From a virus (taxonomy: Duplodnaviria > Heunggongvirae > Uroviricota > Caudoviricetes), in the IMG/VR virus record IMGVR_UViG_3300026224_000019, positions 1 through 36,209 of that record: a stretch of DNA of 36,209 bases, one strand, 5' to 3'. Position 1 is the stretch's first letter. Each line of letters starts with the position of its first letter. The notes beneath the pieces were generated by a model, which made no database searches, was not told the origin of the DNA, and worked only from the letters and a program-made list of their open reading frames with translations. The translations under genes and the position numbers were made by a program. Below, piece by piece: positions 1,419-11,970 of the stretch.

Positions 1419-3899
1419 TTAAAAATCAGTCTGATTCGGGATCAGTTTTTGTATCGTGGCTGTAACGTATTTCGCCTGGTGACGGGCATCATCCAGCGCA
1501 TGGTGGCGCACGCCTTCAAATGGAATAACTGTTCTGGCATCGAAGCCGATAGTTTTTCCCAGTTCAACGATTGTACGTACATCGCGATCGTTGTAGTAAC
1601 GCCACGGGCAGGGGATGTTCAGGCGTTCGTACGAGGTTCGTAAAATAGTGTTGTCGAAAGTTGCACCATTGCCCCATACCTGAACGAATTTTTCATCTGA
1701 GTATTCGTTGATGAACTCCCGAAACCGCGAAAGGGCATCCTTCAGTTTTACCTGGTCTGTTAAAATGGCAGCTCTGGCTTCACTGGACTGCTTCAGCCAC
1801 CATTCGATGGTGCCACCGTCAGGAACAGCCCCTGTATTCATTGCGTCAGTCAGACTGATAACGATATAAAATACTGGCCCGATTTCCCCTGTTTGTGGGT
1901 CGAAGAAAACCGCACCAATAACCACGATGGGCGCATTGGCGTTGGTTCCCATTGTTTCAAGGTCGATCATCAGGTGGTACCACACTCTGCTGGTGGATGT
2001 GATAATGTGATGACCGTTCACCGCAATTAAGGGATCTGCCGTCTCGCCAGTTTTATTATCGCTGGCGTGGTCCTGAGCGCTGCCAGCATTCTTCTTGTGT
2101 GAATGTTCAGCGCCTTCCATTTCCTCCGGATCATCTTCCTGAACTTCAACCTGATACTCTTCATCGAATGTTTCCTGGTATGTTGCGTCGCCCATCACCG
2201 CGCCACAATCAGGGCAGTTGCCGCCGCCGGTTTGACCGCAGGCGGTGCAGACTTTTTCCGGTTCCTGTTGCGCTACTGGCTCAGGTTGTTTCGTTTCTGG
2301 CTCGTTTTGTAACGCATTTGGGCCGTTTTGTTCCGCTTTCTGGTCGTTCTGTTCCGTTTCTTGCTGGTTCTGATTCACTGAATCGCGGGTTTCAATCCCC
2401 TTCACCCATTTCGGATCATTCGGGTCGCTAATCCCTGCAACAAATTCACCACGTGATACAGCAAGCAACTTATCGGCGTCAGGCTGGCTGATATTGGCTG
2501 CCTGCATAATTTTGTTTACTTCGTCAGCGGTAACTTTTACCGGCTCTGGTTGTACGGTCGTGTCAGATGCACCAGTATTTTGTTGTGAACCTGAGTACGT
2601 GCCGTTTTTACGTGCGAAGTATTCCTCTTTTGTGATTTCCGTAGCTCCCAAAGCCAGCGCTTTTTCCAGACCAGAAAGTTTGTTTGCACGACCATATTTT
2701 TCGCCATCCTTATCGGTGAAAAGGAAGTAGAACGGCCCCTCACGCTCTACAGATGGTTCAGTTTCCAGCGTGCTTTCATTTTTTTGGGTATCAGATACTT
2801 CAGTTTCCACTGCATCAGTTTGTGCTGCTGACGGCTGGAGAATATCAGCAGTGCTCTGGTCTGTTTCTTCATCCTCAAACACGCCCTTTGTCGCCAGGTA
2901 TTCAGTGATGTATTTGTTCAGTGCCACGGGATCCTTGTGAATGTCGAGCGGACGCTCACGGACAAGACCAAAAATAGTCTGACGGTTGTAGCGAATGGCA
3001 TCAGGCTGTTTGCGCATTGATGCGGAAATGCGCTTCCAGTCTTCGCGGTCTTTGGCGATAACTTCATTTTCTGCCCAGCGAAGGATGTTACCGTCAATGC
3101 TTCCGGGGTCCGTATCACCAGGCCAGAGATAGCAGGCCAGCTCCCTGTCCAGCGCTTTCCATGTCTGCTTATATTCGCGACGAATGGCAGCAGTGGCAGG
3201 GTTGATTTTTTCTGCTGAGTTTTCAGTGTGCTGTCGGTTGACTCTGACGCGGGCAAGGTCAACAACAGACGTGTATTTTCCAGTCTCTTTGCGCTCTGCG
3301 TCCTGCCGTTTTTTCCAGTTACGTAATTCAGCCTGAATTTCGGGCCATTTGGCACTCGGCTTGCATTTGTGCTTAACCCATCCGATAGCGAACAGTTTGC
3401 GTTCCGGATACATAGCGTTAATTTCAGGCGTTTTCATCAATGCCTCAACGATATGCCCGTCGAATGTTGCCATGTCCTCCTGCAACAATTCCTGTGCACT
3501 AATCACCATATCAACGGTGATGTTTTCACATGTACCGAACTTAACCAGGACCGCGTTCTGTACTTCAAGGGACAGCTTGTCAAAATTGACGTTCATCGGA
3601 TCGGATTCTGGTTCGACCGGAATAAAGGAAGCGGATTCCTCATCCCAGCGGTTTTCCAGCATATATTCGGTATCCCAGGAGTCGATGGCAGGGCGGGGCA
3701 TGCCGGGTTTATCCTCGCAGACAAGAAATTTATAAGCGCAGTCCTGAGCAGCCGGATATTGCTCCAGGAATTGCCAGGTAAATTTGGCACGGGCGCGACG
3801 TTCGTCGCCGGCTTCAATGGCAGTGGCTACAGCGACTGCACCTTCTTCCTTTATTGCCTGTTCGTCCGGAATGGCGGCGCAAATAAAGACTTTACTCAT
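1419..3899 (-). CDS. Large prophage exonuclease (826 aa): C-terminal DnaQ-like 3'-5' exonuclease domain, N-terminal ~550 aa of unknown function with a Cys4 zinc-ribbon motif
   Basis: C-terminal MIDLETMGTNANAPIVVIGAVFFD ... HHALDDARHQAKY matches the DEDDh exonuclease motif pattern. CTACGQ...CPDCG zinc ribbon mid-protein. Occupies the recombination-gene position next to int/xis. Confidence 0.7.
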   Translation of the reverse strand: MSKVFICAAIPDEQAIKEEGAVAVATAIEAGDERRARAKFTWQFLEQYPAAQDCAYKFLVCEDKPGMPRPAIDSWDTEYMLENRWDEESASFIPVEPESDPMNVNFDKLSLEVQNAVLVKFGTCENITVDMVISAQELLQEDMATFDGHIVEALMKTPEINAMYPERKLFAIGWVKHKCKPSAKWPEIQAELRNWKKRQDAERKETGKYTSVVDLARVRVNRQHTENSAEKINPATAAIRREYKQTWKALDRELACYLWPGDTDPGSIDGNILRWAENEVIAKDREDWKRISASMRKQPDAIRYNRQTIFGLVRERPLDIHKDPVALNKYITEYLATKGVFEDEETDQSTADILQPSAAQTDAVETEVSDTQKNESTLETEPSVEREGPFYFLFTDKDGEKYGRANKLSGLEKALALGATEITKEEYFARKNGTYSGSQQNTGASDTTVQPEPVKVTADEVNKIMQAANISQPDADKLLAVSRGEFVAGISDPNDPKWVKGIETRDSVNQNQQETEQNDQKAEQNGPNALQNEPETKQPEPVAQQEPEKVCTACGQTGGGNCPDCGAVMGDATYQETFDEEYQVEVQEDDPEEMEGAEHSHKKNAGSAQDHASDNKTGETADPLIAVNGHHIITSTSRVWYHLMIDLETMGTNANAPIVVIGAVFFDPQTGEIGPVFYIVISLTDAMNTGAVPDGGTIEWWLKQSSEARAAILTDQVKLKDALSRFREFINEYSDEKFVQVWGNGATFDNTILRTSYERLNIPCPWRYYNDRDVRTIVELGKTIGFDARTVIPFEGVRHHALDDARHQAKYVTATIQKLIPNQTDF

Positions 3900-6650: not shown

Positions 6651-6878
6651 ATGTTTAAATCAGACGTAATTAATTTTTATGGGACGAAAGCCAAAGTAGC
6701 GAAAGCTGCTGGTGTTGATCCATCTGCTGTTTCTCAATGGGGAGAACTGGTTCCTGAAGGTCGCGCGATGCGCCTGCAAGAGGCATCTGGCGGGGAACTT
6801 CAGTACGATCCCAAAGTTTATGACGAATATCGTAAGGCAAAGCGTGCGGGGCGGTTGAACAATGAAAATCACCCCTGA
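6651..6878 (+). CDS. Cro-like HTH protein (DicC/YdaS family, 75 aa)
   Basis: Divergent from the repressor across an operator-containing intergenic region. ATG 6651 has a strong RBS. C-terminal motif VPEGRAMRLQEASGGELQYDPKVYDEY. Confidence 0.65.
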   Translation: MFKSDVINFYGTKAKVAKAAGVDPSAVSQWGELVPEGRAMRLQEASGGELQYDPKVYDEYRKAKRAGRLNNENHP

Positions 6879-7413
6879 ACAGGTTTGTGAGGCTCTGGAT
6901 GCCTGGGTATGCCGACCAGGAATGACACAGGAGCAGGCGACGATATTAATCACAGAAGCCTTCTGGGCCCTGAAAGAACGCCCGAACATCGATGTTCAAC
7001 GCGTCACGTTTGATGATGGCGCGGTTGATCAACGGGCGCTGGGCGTTAACCGGGTGAAGATATTCGAACGCTGGAAAGCTATCGACACCAGGGATAAGCG
7101 TGAAAAATTCACGGCGCTGATTCCGGCAATTATGGAGGCTATCCGGATCAGCGATTTCAGGTTGTATTGTGAAATTACTGACGGAAAAAGCATTACGTAC
7201 ATGATCGCCGGGTTAAACAAAGAATATGGCGATGTGGTGGAGTCCGGGCTGCTTTTTGCGGATCCAGCTGTTGTGGAACGTGAGACTGACGAGCTTATAG
7301 AAAAAGCTATTGCTTTCAAGCACGCGTATCGTCAGCAATACCAATATTACTTTGCAGATAAACAAATATCTGTCTGGGGTTCGTATGAGTATCGATGCAC
7401 TACGATGGGCTAA
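6862..7413 (+). CDS. YdaT-like protein at the cII position (183 aa)
   Basis: Position immediately after the Cro-like gene with overlapping start; family call from memory, no motif verified. Confidence 0.45.
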   Translation: MKITPEQVCEALDAWVCRPGMTQEQATILITEAFWALKERPNIDVQRVTFDDGAVDQRALGVNRVKIFERWKAIDTRDKREKFTALIPAIMEAIRISDFRLYCEITDGKSITYMIAGLNKEYGDVVESGLLFADPAVVERETDELIEKAIAFKHAYRQQYQYYFADKQISVWGSYEYRCTTMG

Positions 7414-8425
7414 AAAGGTGAAAACCGGCAGTTCATCCAGTAAGTCAGTATTGACCTGGCTTGCTGATATGTGCGGTGCCGATTTGTGTGCATACCCGTC
7501 TGTATCAGCCCTGGCAGAAGTAACGGAACTGAACAAAAAGACTGTGCAGGACAGCTTACGACACCTGATGGAGATTGGGTTAATTGTTGATACCGGTGAG
7601 AGAAAAGGCAGAACAAAGCAAATTGTGGTGTACCGACTTATCGGTGTAGAAGAAAGTGTTGCCGAGCCTGAATACACCCAAAAACGGGAGTCTTTAAAGG
7701 TGGGTAAAATTGGTGCTGTTAATAAAAACAGTACCGAAAACGGTTATGTTTCAGCACAAAACAGACCCAAAAACGGAACTCTTAACTGCATGGAAAATAA
7801 CCAAAGACACCCAAATTTTCCATTAAAGACACCCAAAAACGGATCACGGAACCCAAAGGAACCCAAAGATCTAAACCCCACACATAACGCACGCGAGAGT
7901 GCTCCGACCAGTGAGCAGGATGTTTTGTCGTTACAGGCAACGCCCCCTGTATTCCTGGATGGCCTGAGCGAACCCATCGGAAAATTTCCGATGACCGATA
8001 GCTGGCATCCGTCGCGGGATTTTCGGCGACGGGCTGCGTTGTGGGGGATGGCTTTGCCGGAACCAGAATTTACACCTGCTGAACTTGCCGCCTTCCGGGA
8101 CTACTGGGCAGCGGAGGGGAAAGTTTTCACGCAGGTTCAGTGGGAGCAGAAATTCGCCCGTCACGTAAATCACGTCAGGGCGCAGGCTAAACCAGTCAGC
8201 AAGGGGGTAAACCATGCAGCAGCACCAGGTGGCACCGCATCACGGGCAGTTCAGGAAATTCGGGCAGCACGTGAGCGGTGGGAGCGTGAAAACGGATTTA
8301 TCAACGACGGAAACTGCCTGGAAGCTGTGGGAACTCATGGGGGAGGTTTATTCGAACCGCTGGACCCAGAAGAACGGGGCCGCACCTTCGAAGCTCTGGA
8401 TTGCACAGATTGGCGCGATGACTGA
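7385..8425 (+). CDS. Replication initiation protein, O-like (N-terminal HTH, DnaT-like C-terminal region)
   Basis: MSIDALRWAKK...SVLTWLADMCGADLCAYPSVSALAEVTELNKKTVQDSLRHLMEIGLIV is a typical phage replication-protein HTH. C-terminal DSWHPSRDFRRRAALWGMALPEP...FRDYWAAEG resembles the DnaT ssDNA-binding domain. The 3' end is uncertain: the ORF runs 212 nt into the P-like gene in another frame. Confidence 0.6.
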   Translation: MSIDALRWAKKVKTGSSSSKSVLTWLADMCGADLCAYPSVSALAEVTELNKKTVQDSLRHLMEIGLIVDTGERKGRTKQIVVYRLIGVEESVAEPEYTQKRESLKVGKIGAVNKNSTENGYVSAQNRPKNGTLNCMENNQRHPNFPLKTPKNGSRNPKEPKDLNPTHNARESAPTSEQDVLSLQATPPVFLDGLSEPIGKFPMTDSWHPSRDFRRRAALWGMALPEPEFTPAELAAFRDYWAAEGKVFTQVQWEQKFARHVNHVRAQAKPVSKGVNHAAAPGGTASRAVQEIRAARERWERENGFINDGNCLEAVGTHGGGLFEPLDPEERGRTFEALDCTDWRDD

Positions 8426-8879
8426 GCAGCAAATCCGGCAGGTCTGCCGCCAGTGCATGGACCGTTGCAGGGCAGGTGAAACATGGCCTCCGGACCTGGC
8501 TGAGTTTGTGGCGCTGATTTCGGAAAGCGGGGCCAATCCATTTGGTCTGACGGTGGATGCTGTGATGGAGGAGTACCGACGCTGGCGCAATGAGTCCTGG
8601 CGATACGACGGAAGCGATAAATATCCGTGGCCTCAGCCTGTGCTGTATCACATTTGCCTCGAGATGCGTTCAAAGGGGATTGAGCGCCAGATGACCGAAG
8701 GTGAGTTAAAACGACTTGCAGAACGGCAACTGGCGAAATGGGCAAAGCATGTTGGTGACGGCTTCAGCGTTCCGCCCGTACGGCGGCAACTGGCAGCACC
8801 AAAACGCCCGTCGGGGCCAACACCAATTGAGTTGCTGAAACAGGAGTATGAACGCCGGAAAGCGGCTGGTTTTGTATGA
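8214..8879 (+). CDS. Replication protein P-like (helicase loader), 221 aa
   Basis: WPPDLAEFVALI..., YPWPQPVLYHICLEMRSKG, ELKRLAERQLAKW parallel lambda P (PSPGQFVAWC, YPWKSNAHYWLV, ELRRKAADEL). ATG 8214 has an AAGGGGG RBS. Alternative start at 8417 overlaps the O stop (ATGACTGA). Confidence 0.6.
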   Translation: MQQHQVAPHHGQFRKFGQHVSGGSVKTDLSTTETAWKLWELMGEVYSNRWTQKNGAAPSKLWIAQIGAMTEQQIRQVCRQCMDRCRAGETWPPDLAEFVALISESGANPFGLTVDAVMEEYRRWRNESWRYDGSDKYPWPQPVLYHICLEMRSKGIERQMTEGELKRLAERQLAKWAKHVGDGFSVPPVRRQLAAPKRPSGPTPIELLKQEYERRKAAGFV

Positions 8880-11524: not shown

Positions 11525-11814
11525 CTGGCCTGAAGCATTCACAACGGTAGGAATTGCGATGGCAGTGGCGCTGGTGGTGTATTCGATTTGCCGCTGGGGA
11601 TAAAAACGGTTTGCGGGAAAAAGGGAGTTAAGTAAAATTGCTGCGGGTGCTTGAGGCTATCTGTCTCAGGCATGAACACCAAAAGGCAGATAGAGAAAAG
11701 CCCCAGTTAACATTACGCGTCCTGCAAGACGCTTAACATTAATCTGAGGCCCAATCTATGTCTCACAAATGTAGGTTAGCCTCTTACGTGCCGAAAGGCA
11801 AGGAGAAGCAGGCT

Positions 11815-11970
11815 ATGAAGCAGCAAAAGGCGATGTTAATCGCCCTGATCGTCATCTGTTTAACCGTCATAGTGACGGCACTGGTAACGAGGAAAGACCT
11901 CTGCGAGGTACGAATCCGAACCGGCCAGACGGAGGTTGCTGTCTTCGTAGACTACGAATCTGAGAAGTAA
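11815..11970 (+). CDS. hokD: Hok/Gef-family type I toxin (51 aa), HokD-like
   Basis: MKQQKAMLIALIVICLTVIVTALVTRKDLCEVRIRTGQTEVAVF is the Hok signature (single TM, conserved Cys, RxxxxEV). AAGGAGAAG RBS. In-frame upstream extension from 11758 could be the mok-like leader frame. Confidence 0.8.
   Translation: MKQQKAMLIALIVICLTVIVTALVTRKDLCEVRIRTGQTEVAVFVDYESEK

Follow-up and report, generated by a model that had tools for sequence, protein, structure and literature searches.

An out-of-frame overlap between initiator and helicase-loader genes in lambdoid replication modules, with a putatively portable initiator tail

Lambda and phi80 (gp15-gp14) encode a replication initiator followed by a helicase loader in the early-right operon, and in both phages these genes meet at a 4-nucleotide (nt) ATGA junction, with the alternative frames closed over the 5' end of P. 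Classical genetics established that the C-terminal part of lambda O works with P. Long out-of-frame overprinted genes are known from phages and other viruses, e.g., in phiX174 and as lambda Rz/Rz1. Here, we describe an initiator-loader junction in which the two genes instead share 70 codons, located at positions 8214-8425 of a 36,209-nt Caudoviricetes record from IMG/VR (IMGVR_UViG_3300026224_000019), analyzed over its full length and hereafter referred to as the window. The window contains a lambdoid early-right replication module, for which the gene order in close relatives is dicA, dicC, a ydaT-family gene, a gene annotated as "DnaT-like ssDNA-binding domain-containing protein" (ssDNA, single-stranded DNA), and "replication protein P". 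An initial annotation of this sequence had noted that the O-like frame is without a stop until 8425 and that the P-like frame has a strong ribosome-binding site and an ATG at 8214, and had proposed either a genuine overlap of about 70 codons, a loader start further downstream, or a frameshift in O. Comparison across loci supports the first of these options: both genes are real and both are probably read across 8214-8425, with the end of the initiator forming a portable tail for which we propose a role in loader docking.

The closest described systems provide a frame for this comparison. Structures of lambda P bound to DnaB place a disordered N-terminal "lasso" at residues 1-29 and domain II at residues ~30-119; the same study used lambda O residues 156-299 as the P-side construct and saw no O density, so that initiator-loader recruitment was left structurally unresolved (PMC12661323). 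Phages of the phiV10/epsilon15 type pair a DnaT-family initiator with a lambda-P-family loader in the same order as the window. However, the phiV10 initiator ends shortly after its DnaT domain and scores only 4.3 bits against a hidden Markov model (HMM) of the tail, its junction is again a 4-nt ATGA, and 4-5 stops close the alternative frames, indicating that neither tail nor overlap is necessary for DnaT-P pairing. Lambda P, the homologue of the loader, has no gene overlapping it, which makes the loader frame the ancestral one, onto which the initiator tail was overprinted. The lack of a tail and the closed frames in lambda, phi80, and phiV10 likewise mark the overlap as a derived state. As in phiX174 and Rz/Rz1, one stretch of DNA is used in two frames, one ancestral and one derived, and synonymous variation is reduced. 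In contrast to these cases, the overprinted product in the window is a C-terminal extension of the upstream gene and not a separate gene, the two products are probable pathway partners, and the doubly coding stretch appears to act as a recombination cassette between differing upstream bodies and downstream domains. Lambda-type modules of initiator and loader and, more generally, overprinted genes in phages are both known kinds of element. We found no description of this overlap in the literature searched, the coverage of which omits most subscription journals and older lambda-genetics papers.

In the window, the loader frame (+1 relative to the initiator) is open right after a TAA at 8208-8210, which is followed by ACC and then by ATG 8214 (Table 1). 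This ATG is preceded by aaGGGGGtaaacc, which puts the Shine-Dalgarno sequence 6 nt upstream, and the frame then stays open to 8879. The shared 212 nt, a length already given in the initial annotation, encode residues 1-70 of the loader in one frame and the last 70 residues of the initiator in the other. This arrangement is widespread. A 1-kb query spanning the junction matched 1,256 of 5,426 complete Escherichia coli genomes at 86-97% identity, and both genes were annotated as intact, with a 1041-nt initiator, in every E. coli record sampled. A scan of one genome per species yielded 28 loci from Escherichia, Citrobacter, Enterobacter, Klebsiella, Pluralibacter, Phytobacter, Kluyvera, Salmonella, Scandinavium, Leclercia, Pectobacterium, Erwinia, Buttiauxella, Samsonia, Limnobaculum, and Symbiopectobacterium. 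A long upstream open reading frame (ORF) covered the 5' part of the loader gene in 25 of these (~15 genera), and in 16 of the 25, counting from the first base of the codon for loader residue W50, the initiator stop follows at exactly 65 nt, as it does in the window. None of the initiator homologues at the loci compared ends near 8210, an outcome that the initial annotation had raised as a sign of assembly error.

We then asked how often such a double reading would be open by chance, by resampling synonymous codons with the protein of one frame fixed and scoring the openness of the other. For the window alone, the loader frame was open in 26% of trials with the initiator fixed, and the initiator frame in 6% with the loader fixed; the arrangement is hence not improbable in a single sequence, and its significance comes from the comparison with other loci. 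Across the 25 loci, the geometric-mean probability of an open frame was 0.22 per locus for the loader and 0.035 for the initiator, values that cannot simply be multiplied since the loci are phylogenetically related. Taking the second half of the overlap by itself, the initiator frame was open in ~25% of synonymous resamplings. Both frames are open across diverged relatives beyond the expectation from the partner protein, i.e., the overlap is doubly coding. Judged from these alignments, it is real, not due to a frameshift, and not peculiar to the window.

Patterns of constraint, measured as pairwise nucleotide identity by codon position and in a sliding window across loci, indicate which frame prevails where. 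Upstream of the overlap, identities at initiator-frame positions 1, 2, and 3 were 0.67, 0.71, and 0.45, respectively, and this periodicity persists within 8214-8310 (0.66, 0.72, and 0.57). From ~8310 to 8422, the periodicity of the loader frame takes over, with identities of 0.86, 0.88, and 0.59 at its positions 1, 2, and 3, compared to 0.83, 0.86, and 0.48 in the region encoding the loader only. In each half of the overlap, conservation of the "wobble" class exceeded that in the flank with a single coding frame (p = 0.004 and 0.012, Mann-Whitney test). Both frames bear the signature of purifying selection, with the initiator dominating to ~8310 and the loader from there on. Conserved tail residues S286, A288, Q290, R293, R296, and W299 sit where the loader frame varies. 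Where no initiator overlaps, the equivalent frame is closed, as illustrated by two Erwinia genomes encoding stand-alone lambda-P-type loaders (L027, 2941-3567, 208 amino acids (aa); L030, 2974-3543, 189 aa), in which this frame contains 2 and 7 stops, respectively. Similarly, the alternative frames over the 5' end of the loader gene contain 2-5 stops in lambda, phi80, and phiV10. The two Erwinia genes have chromosomal surroundings, one immediately following a ttcA-like gene and the other a phosphotransferase system transporter gene, with the initiator gene absent, and may represent prophage remnants or domesticated loaders. They nevertheless keep the AWxLW...M..IY.NRW..KNG block without an open overlapping frame, so that conservation of this block is independent of the other frame.

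Two explanations would deny the initiator tail a role of its own. One is that a frameshift, natural or introduced by sequencing, near 8190-8230 artificially extended by 70 codons an initiator whose true end is around 8210. The DnaT domain does end at residue 268 (~8188), just before the overlap, and in the other frame TAA 8208 and the ATG at 8214 after it look like a classical gene junction. However, an initiator of identical length (346 aa) occurs in independent complete genomes, no homologue ends at the corresponding position, the tail is conserved at the protein level in different genera, in Vibrio phages, and on initiator bodies that are unrelated, and the codon periodicity of the initiator runs on past the supposed junction. 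Genuinely frameshifted examples also look different. In Leclercia adecarboxylata NCTC13032 (L031, ~2938-3189), the loader frame switches to the initiator-tail frame after "...AWHLWQVMG" and reads "...GNILEPVDAEEWGRTFGALDSPDRFDD*", so that this copy of the loader is frameshifted and represents a pseudogene or an error in the assembly. Separately, a 385-aa ORF (P0108; L036, ENA ERZ1331313 tig00000001, 2501-3658) runs from the end of a DnaT domain through the first half of the tail and the loader into a downstream gene. This was the only fused initiator-loader ORF seen, and fusion would need a +1 shift from the initiator into the loader frame. We rejected this ORF as evidence for a natural fusion or programmed frameshift, as it lies on a Canu long-read contig with fragmented neighboring genes and is probably an indel artefact. 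The probability we attach to a frameshift in the window is close to nil.

The other explanation accepts the overlap as real and regards the tail as tolerated read-through without its own function, its conservation and modularity being by-products of selection on the loader. Some observations do point this way and weigh against a functional tail: much of the sequence of its second half is set by conserved loader residues (the loader K-N-G imposes E-E-R/W on the initiator), the tail ends ~11 codons earlier at two loci (L024 and L033), where the extreme C-terminus is hence dispensable, and AlphaFold2 (AF2) confidence over the tail is low. In addition, any initiator recombined upstream of the loader ribosome-binding site would gain some read-through. 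In the first half of the overlap, by contrast, both periodicity and conserved residues belong to the initiator frame, and the low per-locus probability that this frame stays open given the loader, together with the stops gathered in stand-alone loaders (2-7) and in lambda, phi80, and phiV10, argues against mere tolerance. The tail is also still recognizable at 25-30 bits in Vibrio phages with loaders only 31-43% identical to that of the window. The initiator-frame signal in 8214-8310 and the closure of the frame where the initiator is absent weaken the read-through explanation, which we regard as improbable.

Turning to the proteins, the loader is assigned by the Pfam threshold to the lambda-P-type helicase loaders, PF06992 matching residues 56-188 of the 221-aa form at 59 bits (cutoff 26). 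The loader-family profile aligns lambda P from W62 of the window protein, equivalent to W70 of lambda P, and matches lambda P chains 8v9t_V and 8v9s_A. In the AF2 model of the 221-aa form, residues 1-27 are disordered, helices span residues 29-181, including helices 29-46, 48-54, and 60-67 at a predicted local distance difference test score (pLDDT) of ~85, and a C-terminal helix covers residues 204-217. These first three helices form part of domain II and are encoded within the overlap. In a Foldseek search, the model aligned over 222 columns to the complete lambda P chain (9oa1_Z), at a probability of 1.0 and a template modeling (TM) score of only 0.36, the low score being due to flexibly linked domains. 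As modeled, the loader has the complete lambda-P layout, i.e., a disordered N-terminal segment followed by compact domains II and III and then by a C-terminal segment. Because domain II of lambda P spans residues 30-119, loader residue 69, encoded at 8418, would fall in the middle of a folded domain.

This layout bears on where the loader begins, for which public records use four different starts (Table 1). Across 28 homologues, the best-conserved block corresponds to loader residues 34-68, with W50, K53, N54, G55, P58, and W62 invariant down to 44% identity. The suggestion in the initial annotation that the N-terminal part is P-like therefore holds for residues 34-68, which also align to the lambda P profile, and not for the variable residues 1-33. 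A GGAGG, GGGGG, or GAGG core lies 6-10 nt upstream of the first ATG at most of the 28 loci. The initiator codon over ATG 8214 is NAT at all 25 loci, although the encoded residue varies (His at 15, Asn at 8, Tyr at 1, and Asp at 1), and the following initiator codon begins with G at all 25; a fixed NAT with a varying residue is what selection on the ATG itself would be expected to produce. Conversely, because residues 1-33 are poorly conserved, a start at exactly 8214 draws its support from the ATG, the Shine-Dalgarno sequence, and the open frame, and the Pfam match leaves the start undecided by itself, the long form scoring only 1.9 bits above the 153-aa form. On balance, 8214 is the only conserved candidate for the start, and we consider it quite probably correct.

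The main alternative is ATG 8337 (Met42), which would reduce the overlap to 89 nt and make 8214-8336 an untranslated stretch in which the loader frame happens to be open. Met42 is nearly invariant, it is the start called by the NCBI Prokaryotic Genome Annotation Pipeline (PGAP) for loaders of 180-181 aa in Citrobacter, Klebsiella, Brenneria, and Pectobacterium, GGGAGG is found shortly before its codon at some loci, and the weak conservation of residues 1-33 and the dominance of the initiator frame before ~8310 would both fit. Yet the A-W-x-L-W-E motif and the predicted helix from residue 29 lie upstream of Met42, ATG 8214 is kept through NAT codon choice along with a conserved Shine-Dalgarno sequence, the stand-alone Erwinia loaders and the Vibrio loaders start 24-50 codons before W50, and in lambda P the equivalent Trp is preceded by 69 residues. 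A sole start at Met42 is accordingly unlikely; it is most likely an internal residue, and could be a secondary start. The initial annotation had also offered an ATG at 8417; this codon does overlap the initiator stop, and its true coordinates are 8418-8420. A start there, coupled to that stop through the 8-nt overlap ATGACTGA and leaving the upstream open frame fortuitous, would match the 153-aa PGAP annotation in E. coli, would resemble classical translational coupling, and would require a chance open frame that is not rare in the window alone (p ~0.26). The codons for ATGA-type coupling at 8418/8423 are indeed present, but this start is unconserved, has no Shine-Dalgarno sequence, and lies inside domain II: Met69 is replaced by Leu in many homologues, the equivalent codon is CTG or TTG at 5 of 28 loci, and no locus has a Shine-Dalgarno sequence in front of it. 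The most conserved loader block and the beginning of the PF06992 match (residue 56) both lie upstream, and the 153-aa product would lose three domain II helices. Only annotation choices place homologues at this start, which we consider highly improbable. In practice, the loader gene is very common, and the RefSeq E. coli form (153 aa) is missing half of a folded domain, so that cloning or modeling it would amount to using a truncated loader.

The window initiator matched PF17948 (DnaT) at 64.3 bits (cutoff 25) and HTH_36 at 20.7 bits, below the cutoff, while a Pfam scan gave no match to PF04492 (Phage_rep_O), i.e., by that test it is not of the lambda-O type. The PF17948 match and the position between ydaT-like and loader genes identify it as a prophage initiator of the DnaT-like-domain type. 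Its C-terminus follows a different distribution from the rest of the protein. By BLASTP, the initiators of three other loci (L022, L023, and L025) match it only over residues ~265-346, and this shared segment begins at ~8186, just upstream of the loader ribosome-binding site. Combining BLASTP and Pfam, the 79-residue tail was found on at least five different initiator bodies: an HTH_36 plus DnaT domain (the window), DnaT domains preceded by other N-termini (among them DUF1376), an N-terminal Phage_rep_O domain (L022, with 35% identity to residues 1-140 of lambda O), a type with the lambda-O C-domain (L023, with 50% identity to residues 159-268 of lambda O), DUF1376 lacking a DnaT domain (L025), and bodies without a Pfam match. 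PF04492 itself is present in L022 and P0145, both of which have the tail. An exhaustive phmmer search with the tail returned 26 hits, several of which were low-complexity multi-stretch proteins and were set aside, and found the tail only at the C-terminus of proteins of 317-360 aa; a word-indexed search with the tail alone was of little use, as it retrieved only 7 short fragments from E. coli. On this evidence, the tail appears as a selected, portable module, always joined near the loader ribosome-binding site.

Similar cassettes occur in Vibrio phages. The loaders described from Vibrio viruses in 2024 (VdhL) adjoin O-like genes, have a variable N-terminal region that is essential for loading, and show weak similarity (~30%) to lambda-P-domain proteins; the word "overlap" does not occur in that paper (PMC11087808). 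Searching phage genomes with the 221-aa loader (tblastn), we obtained matches in 124 Vibrio phage records, each lying under two annotated genes. In Vibrio phage D77, the O-like gene (1152-2012) overlaps the loader by 212 nt, and the loader ATG at 1801 comes right after TAA-ACC, just as ATG 8214 does in the window; the overlap is ~200 nt in D68 and 191 nt in 1.247.B, the latter with an initiator body containing a lambda-O C-domain. The HMM of enterobacterial tails matched the C-termini of Vibrio phage initiators from three lineages at 25-30 bits, with 29 bits for D77 (…ATSRVSAALEKQRAEF…HQEERGGSFIDLDNGDWSSK). The Vibrio loaders resemble that of the window only over residues 1-132 or 38-102, i.e., domains I-II, and Pfam returned no PF06992 match in their C-terminal half, so the cassettes of D77, D68, and 1.247.B are like that of the window whereas the downstream half of the loader differs. 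The tail is overprinted on the N-terminal 100-130 residues of these loaders. As the Vibrio cassette is flanked by different modules on both sides, the conserved unit is the doubly coding cassette itself. Three of these Vibrio loaders (L037, 1801-2460; L038, 1693-2334; L041, 1390-2019) are annotated as "hypothetical protein" with starts downstream of the probable ATG, have no Pfam match in their C-terminal half, and may be related to VdhL.

Taken together, these results suggest a model in which the DnaT-domain initiator would be translated from 7385 to TGA 8423, and the loader would initiate independently at ATG 8214, through a Shine-Dalgarno sequence embedded in initiator codons, and be read in the +1 frame to 8879. 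The initiator tail, overprinted on the ancestral loader frame, would tether the loader, along with DnaB, to the initiator bound at the origin, just as lambda P is recruited by the C-terminal part of lambda O. With the tail written inside the loader gene, recombination in mosaic phage genomes could not separate the cognate pair. The docking step draws on the lambda paradigm and on the co-inheritance of tail and loader, and we give it not quite an even chance. The tail would be a flexible segment with a predicted amphipathic helix (287-302) and an acidic, Trp-containing end, although in the AF2 model of the initiator its helices (287-302 and 328-336) stand in an otherwise low-confidence region, and the tail HMM found nothing in lambda O, both of which tell against docking. 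Nor did this HMM find anything in lambda P, any frame of the lambda region, or phi80. Short acidic ends with a Trp are seen in several initiators (lambda, L035, KLDLTNTDWIYGVDL; phi80, L039, DLDFNNTDWAYGVIR; the window at 8390-8422, ALDCTDWRDD; D77, IDLDNGDWSSK; phiV10, PEAWEDFL). Given the negative HMM result in lambda and phi80, the resemblance of their DLDxxNTDWxYGV ends to LDCTDW and DLDNGDW is only a visual lead; such ends could represent a shared docking motif, without statistical support.

If the tail is a docking element, it would illustrate how mosaic phages hold cognate replication partners together, and would make available a defined peptide of 79 residues with which to probe how initiators recruit loaders. 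Independently of its role, this overlap is a clean and deeply conserved case, in Vibrio phages as well as Enterobacterales, in which the C-terminal extension of one protein is overprinted on the neighboring gene. A broader and more tentative possibility, to which we lean somewhat less than to docking, is that ~8186-8425 and its equivalents form a portable adaptor cassette, in which two frames of one segment encode both sides of the initiator-loader interface. Any origin-binding body in front and any helicase-binding domain behind (of the lambda-P type in Enterobacterales, with a different C-terminal half in Vibrio phages) would then be automatically matched, and overprinting would enforce the co-inheritance of interacting partners in mosaic phage genomes.

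Table 1 Coordinates of features at the initiator-loader junction of the window, including the loader starts used in public records.
Feature	Position	Strand	Description
O-like replication initiator gene	7385-8425	+	ORF, ATG 7385, TGA 8423-8425; 346 aa, 1041 nt
Initiator layout			N-terminal helix-turn-helix, iteron-bearing linker, DnaT-like domain (aa 201-268), C-terminal tail (aa ~268-346)
Candidate origin iterons in initiator linker	7676-7867	+	ACCCAAAAACGG x3 (7676, 7765, 7831), AAAGACACCCAAA x2, GGAACCCAAA x2
Coding region of initiator C-terminal tail	8186-8425	+	Initiator frame; sole part shared with initiators of other bodies
Loader Shine-Dalgarno sequence	8201-8207	+	AAGGGGG, within initiator codons K-G-V
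P-like helicase-loader gene, full form	8214-8879	+	ORF, 221 aa, PF06992; end-to-end homologues of 212-223 aa
Doubly coding overlap	8214-8425	+	212 nt; loader frame = initiator frame +1
ATG of loader Met42	8337-8339	+	Nearly invariant residue; PGAP start in several other genera
ATGACTGA	8418-8425	+	ATG (Met69) overlapping initiator stop; PGAP start in E. coli, not conserved as start
Loader start in public records	8214		221-223 aa; many GenBank entries
Loader start in public records	8337		180-181 aa; PGAP, several other genera (Citrobacter, Klebsiella, Brenneria, Pectobacterium)
Loader start in public records	8418		153 aa; PGAP in E. coli (RefSeq form)
Loader start in public records	8457		140 aa; DDBJ PPompW phage records

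Further features of the window lie outside the overlap. Repeats within the initiator linker resemble the lambda ori iterons inside O, and by this analogy they are a candidate origin. The three exact copies of ACCCAAAAACGG are confined to 7676-7867 within the window; when up to 2 mismatches are allowed, 8 matches are found in the window, which is not unusual compared to shuffled sequences. Upstream, the ydaT-family gene (6862-7413) extends in a different frame 29 nt into the initiator gene (7385-7413), and the same overlap is also found in PGAP-annotated E. coli genomes. Downstream, a match to the sok antitoxin RNA (Rfam RF01794) at 11645-11820 on the + strand, scoring 120 bits against a gathering score of 59, indicates a putative hok/sok-type toxin-antitoxin locus ~3 kb from the replication genes.

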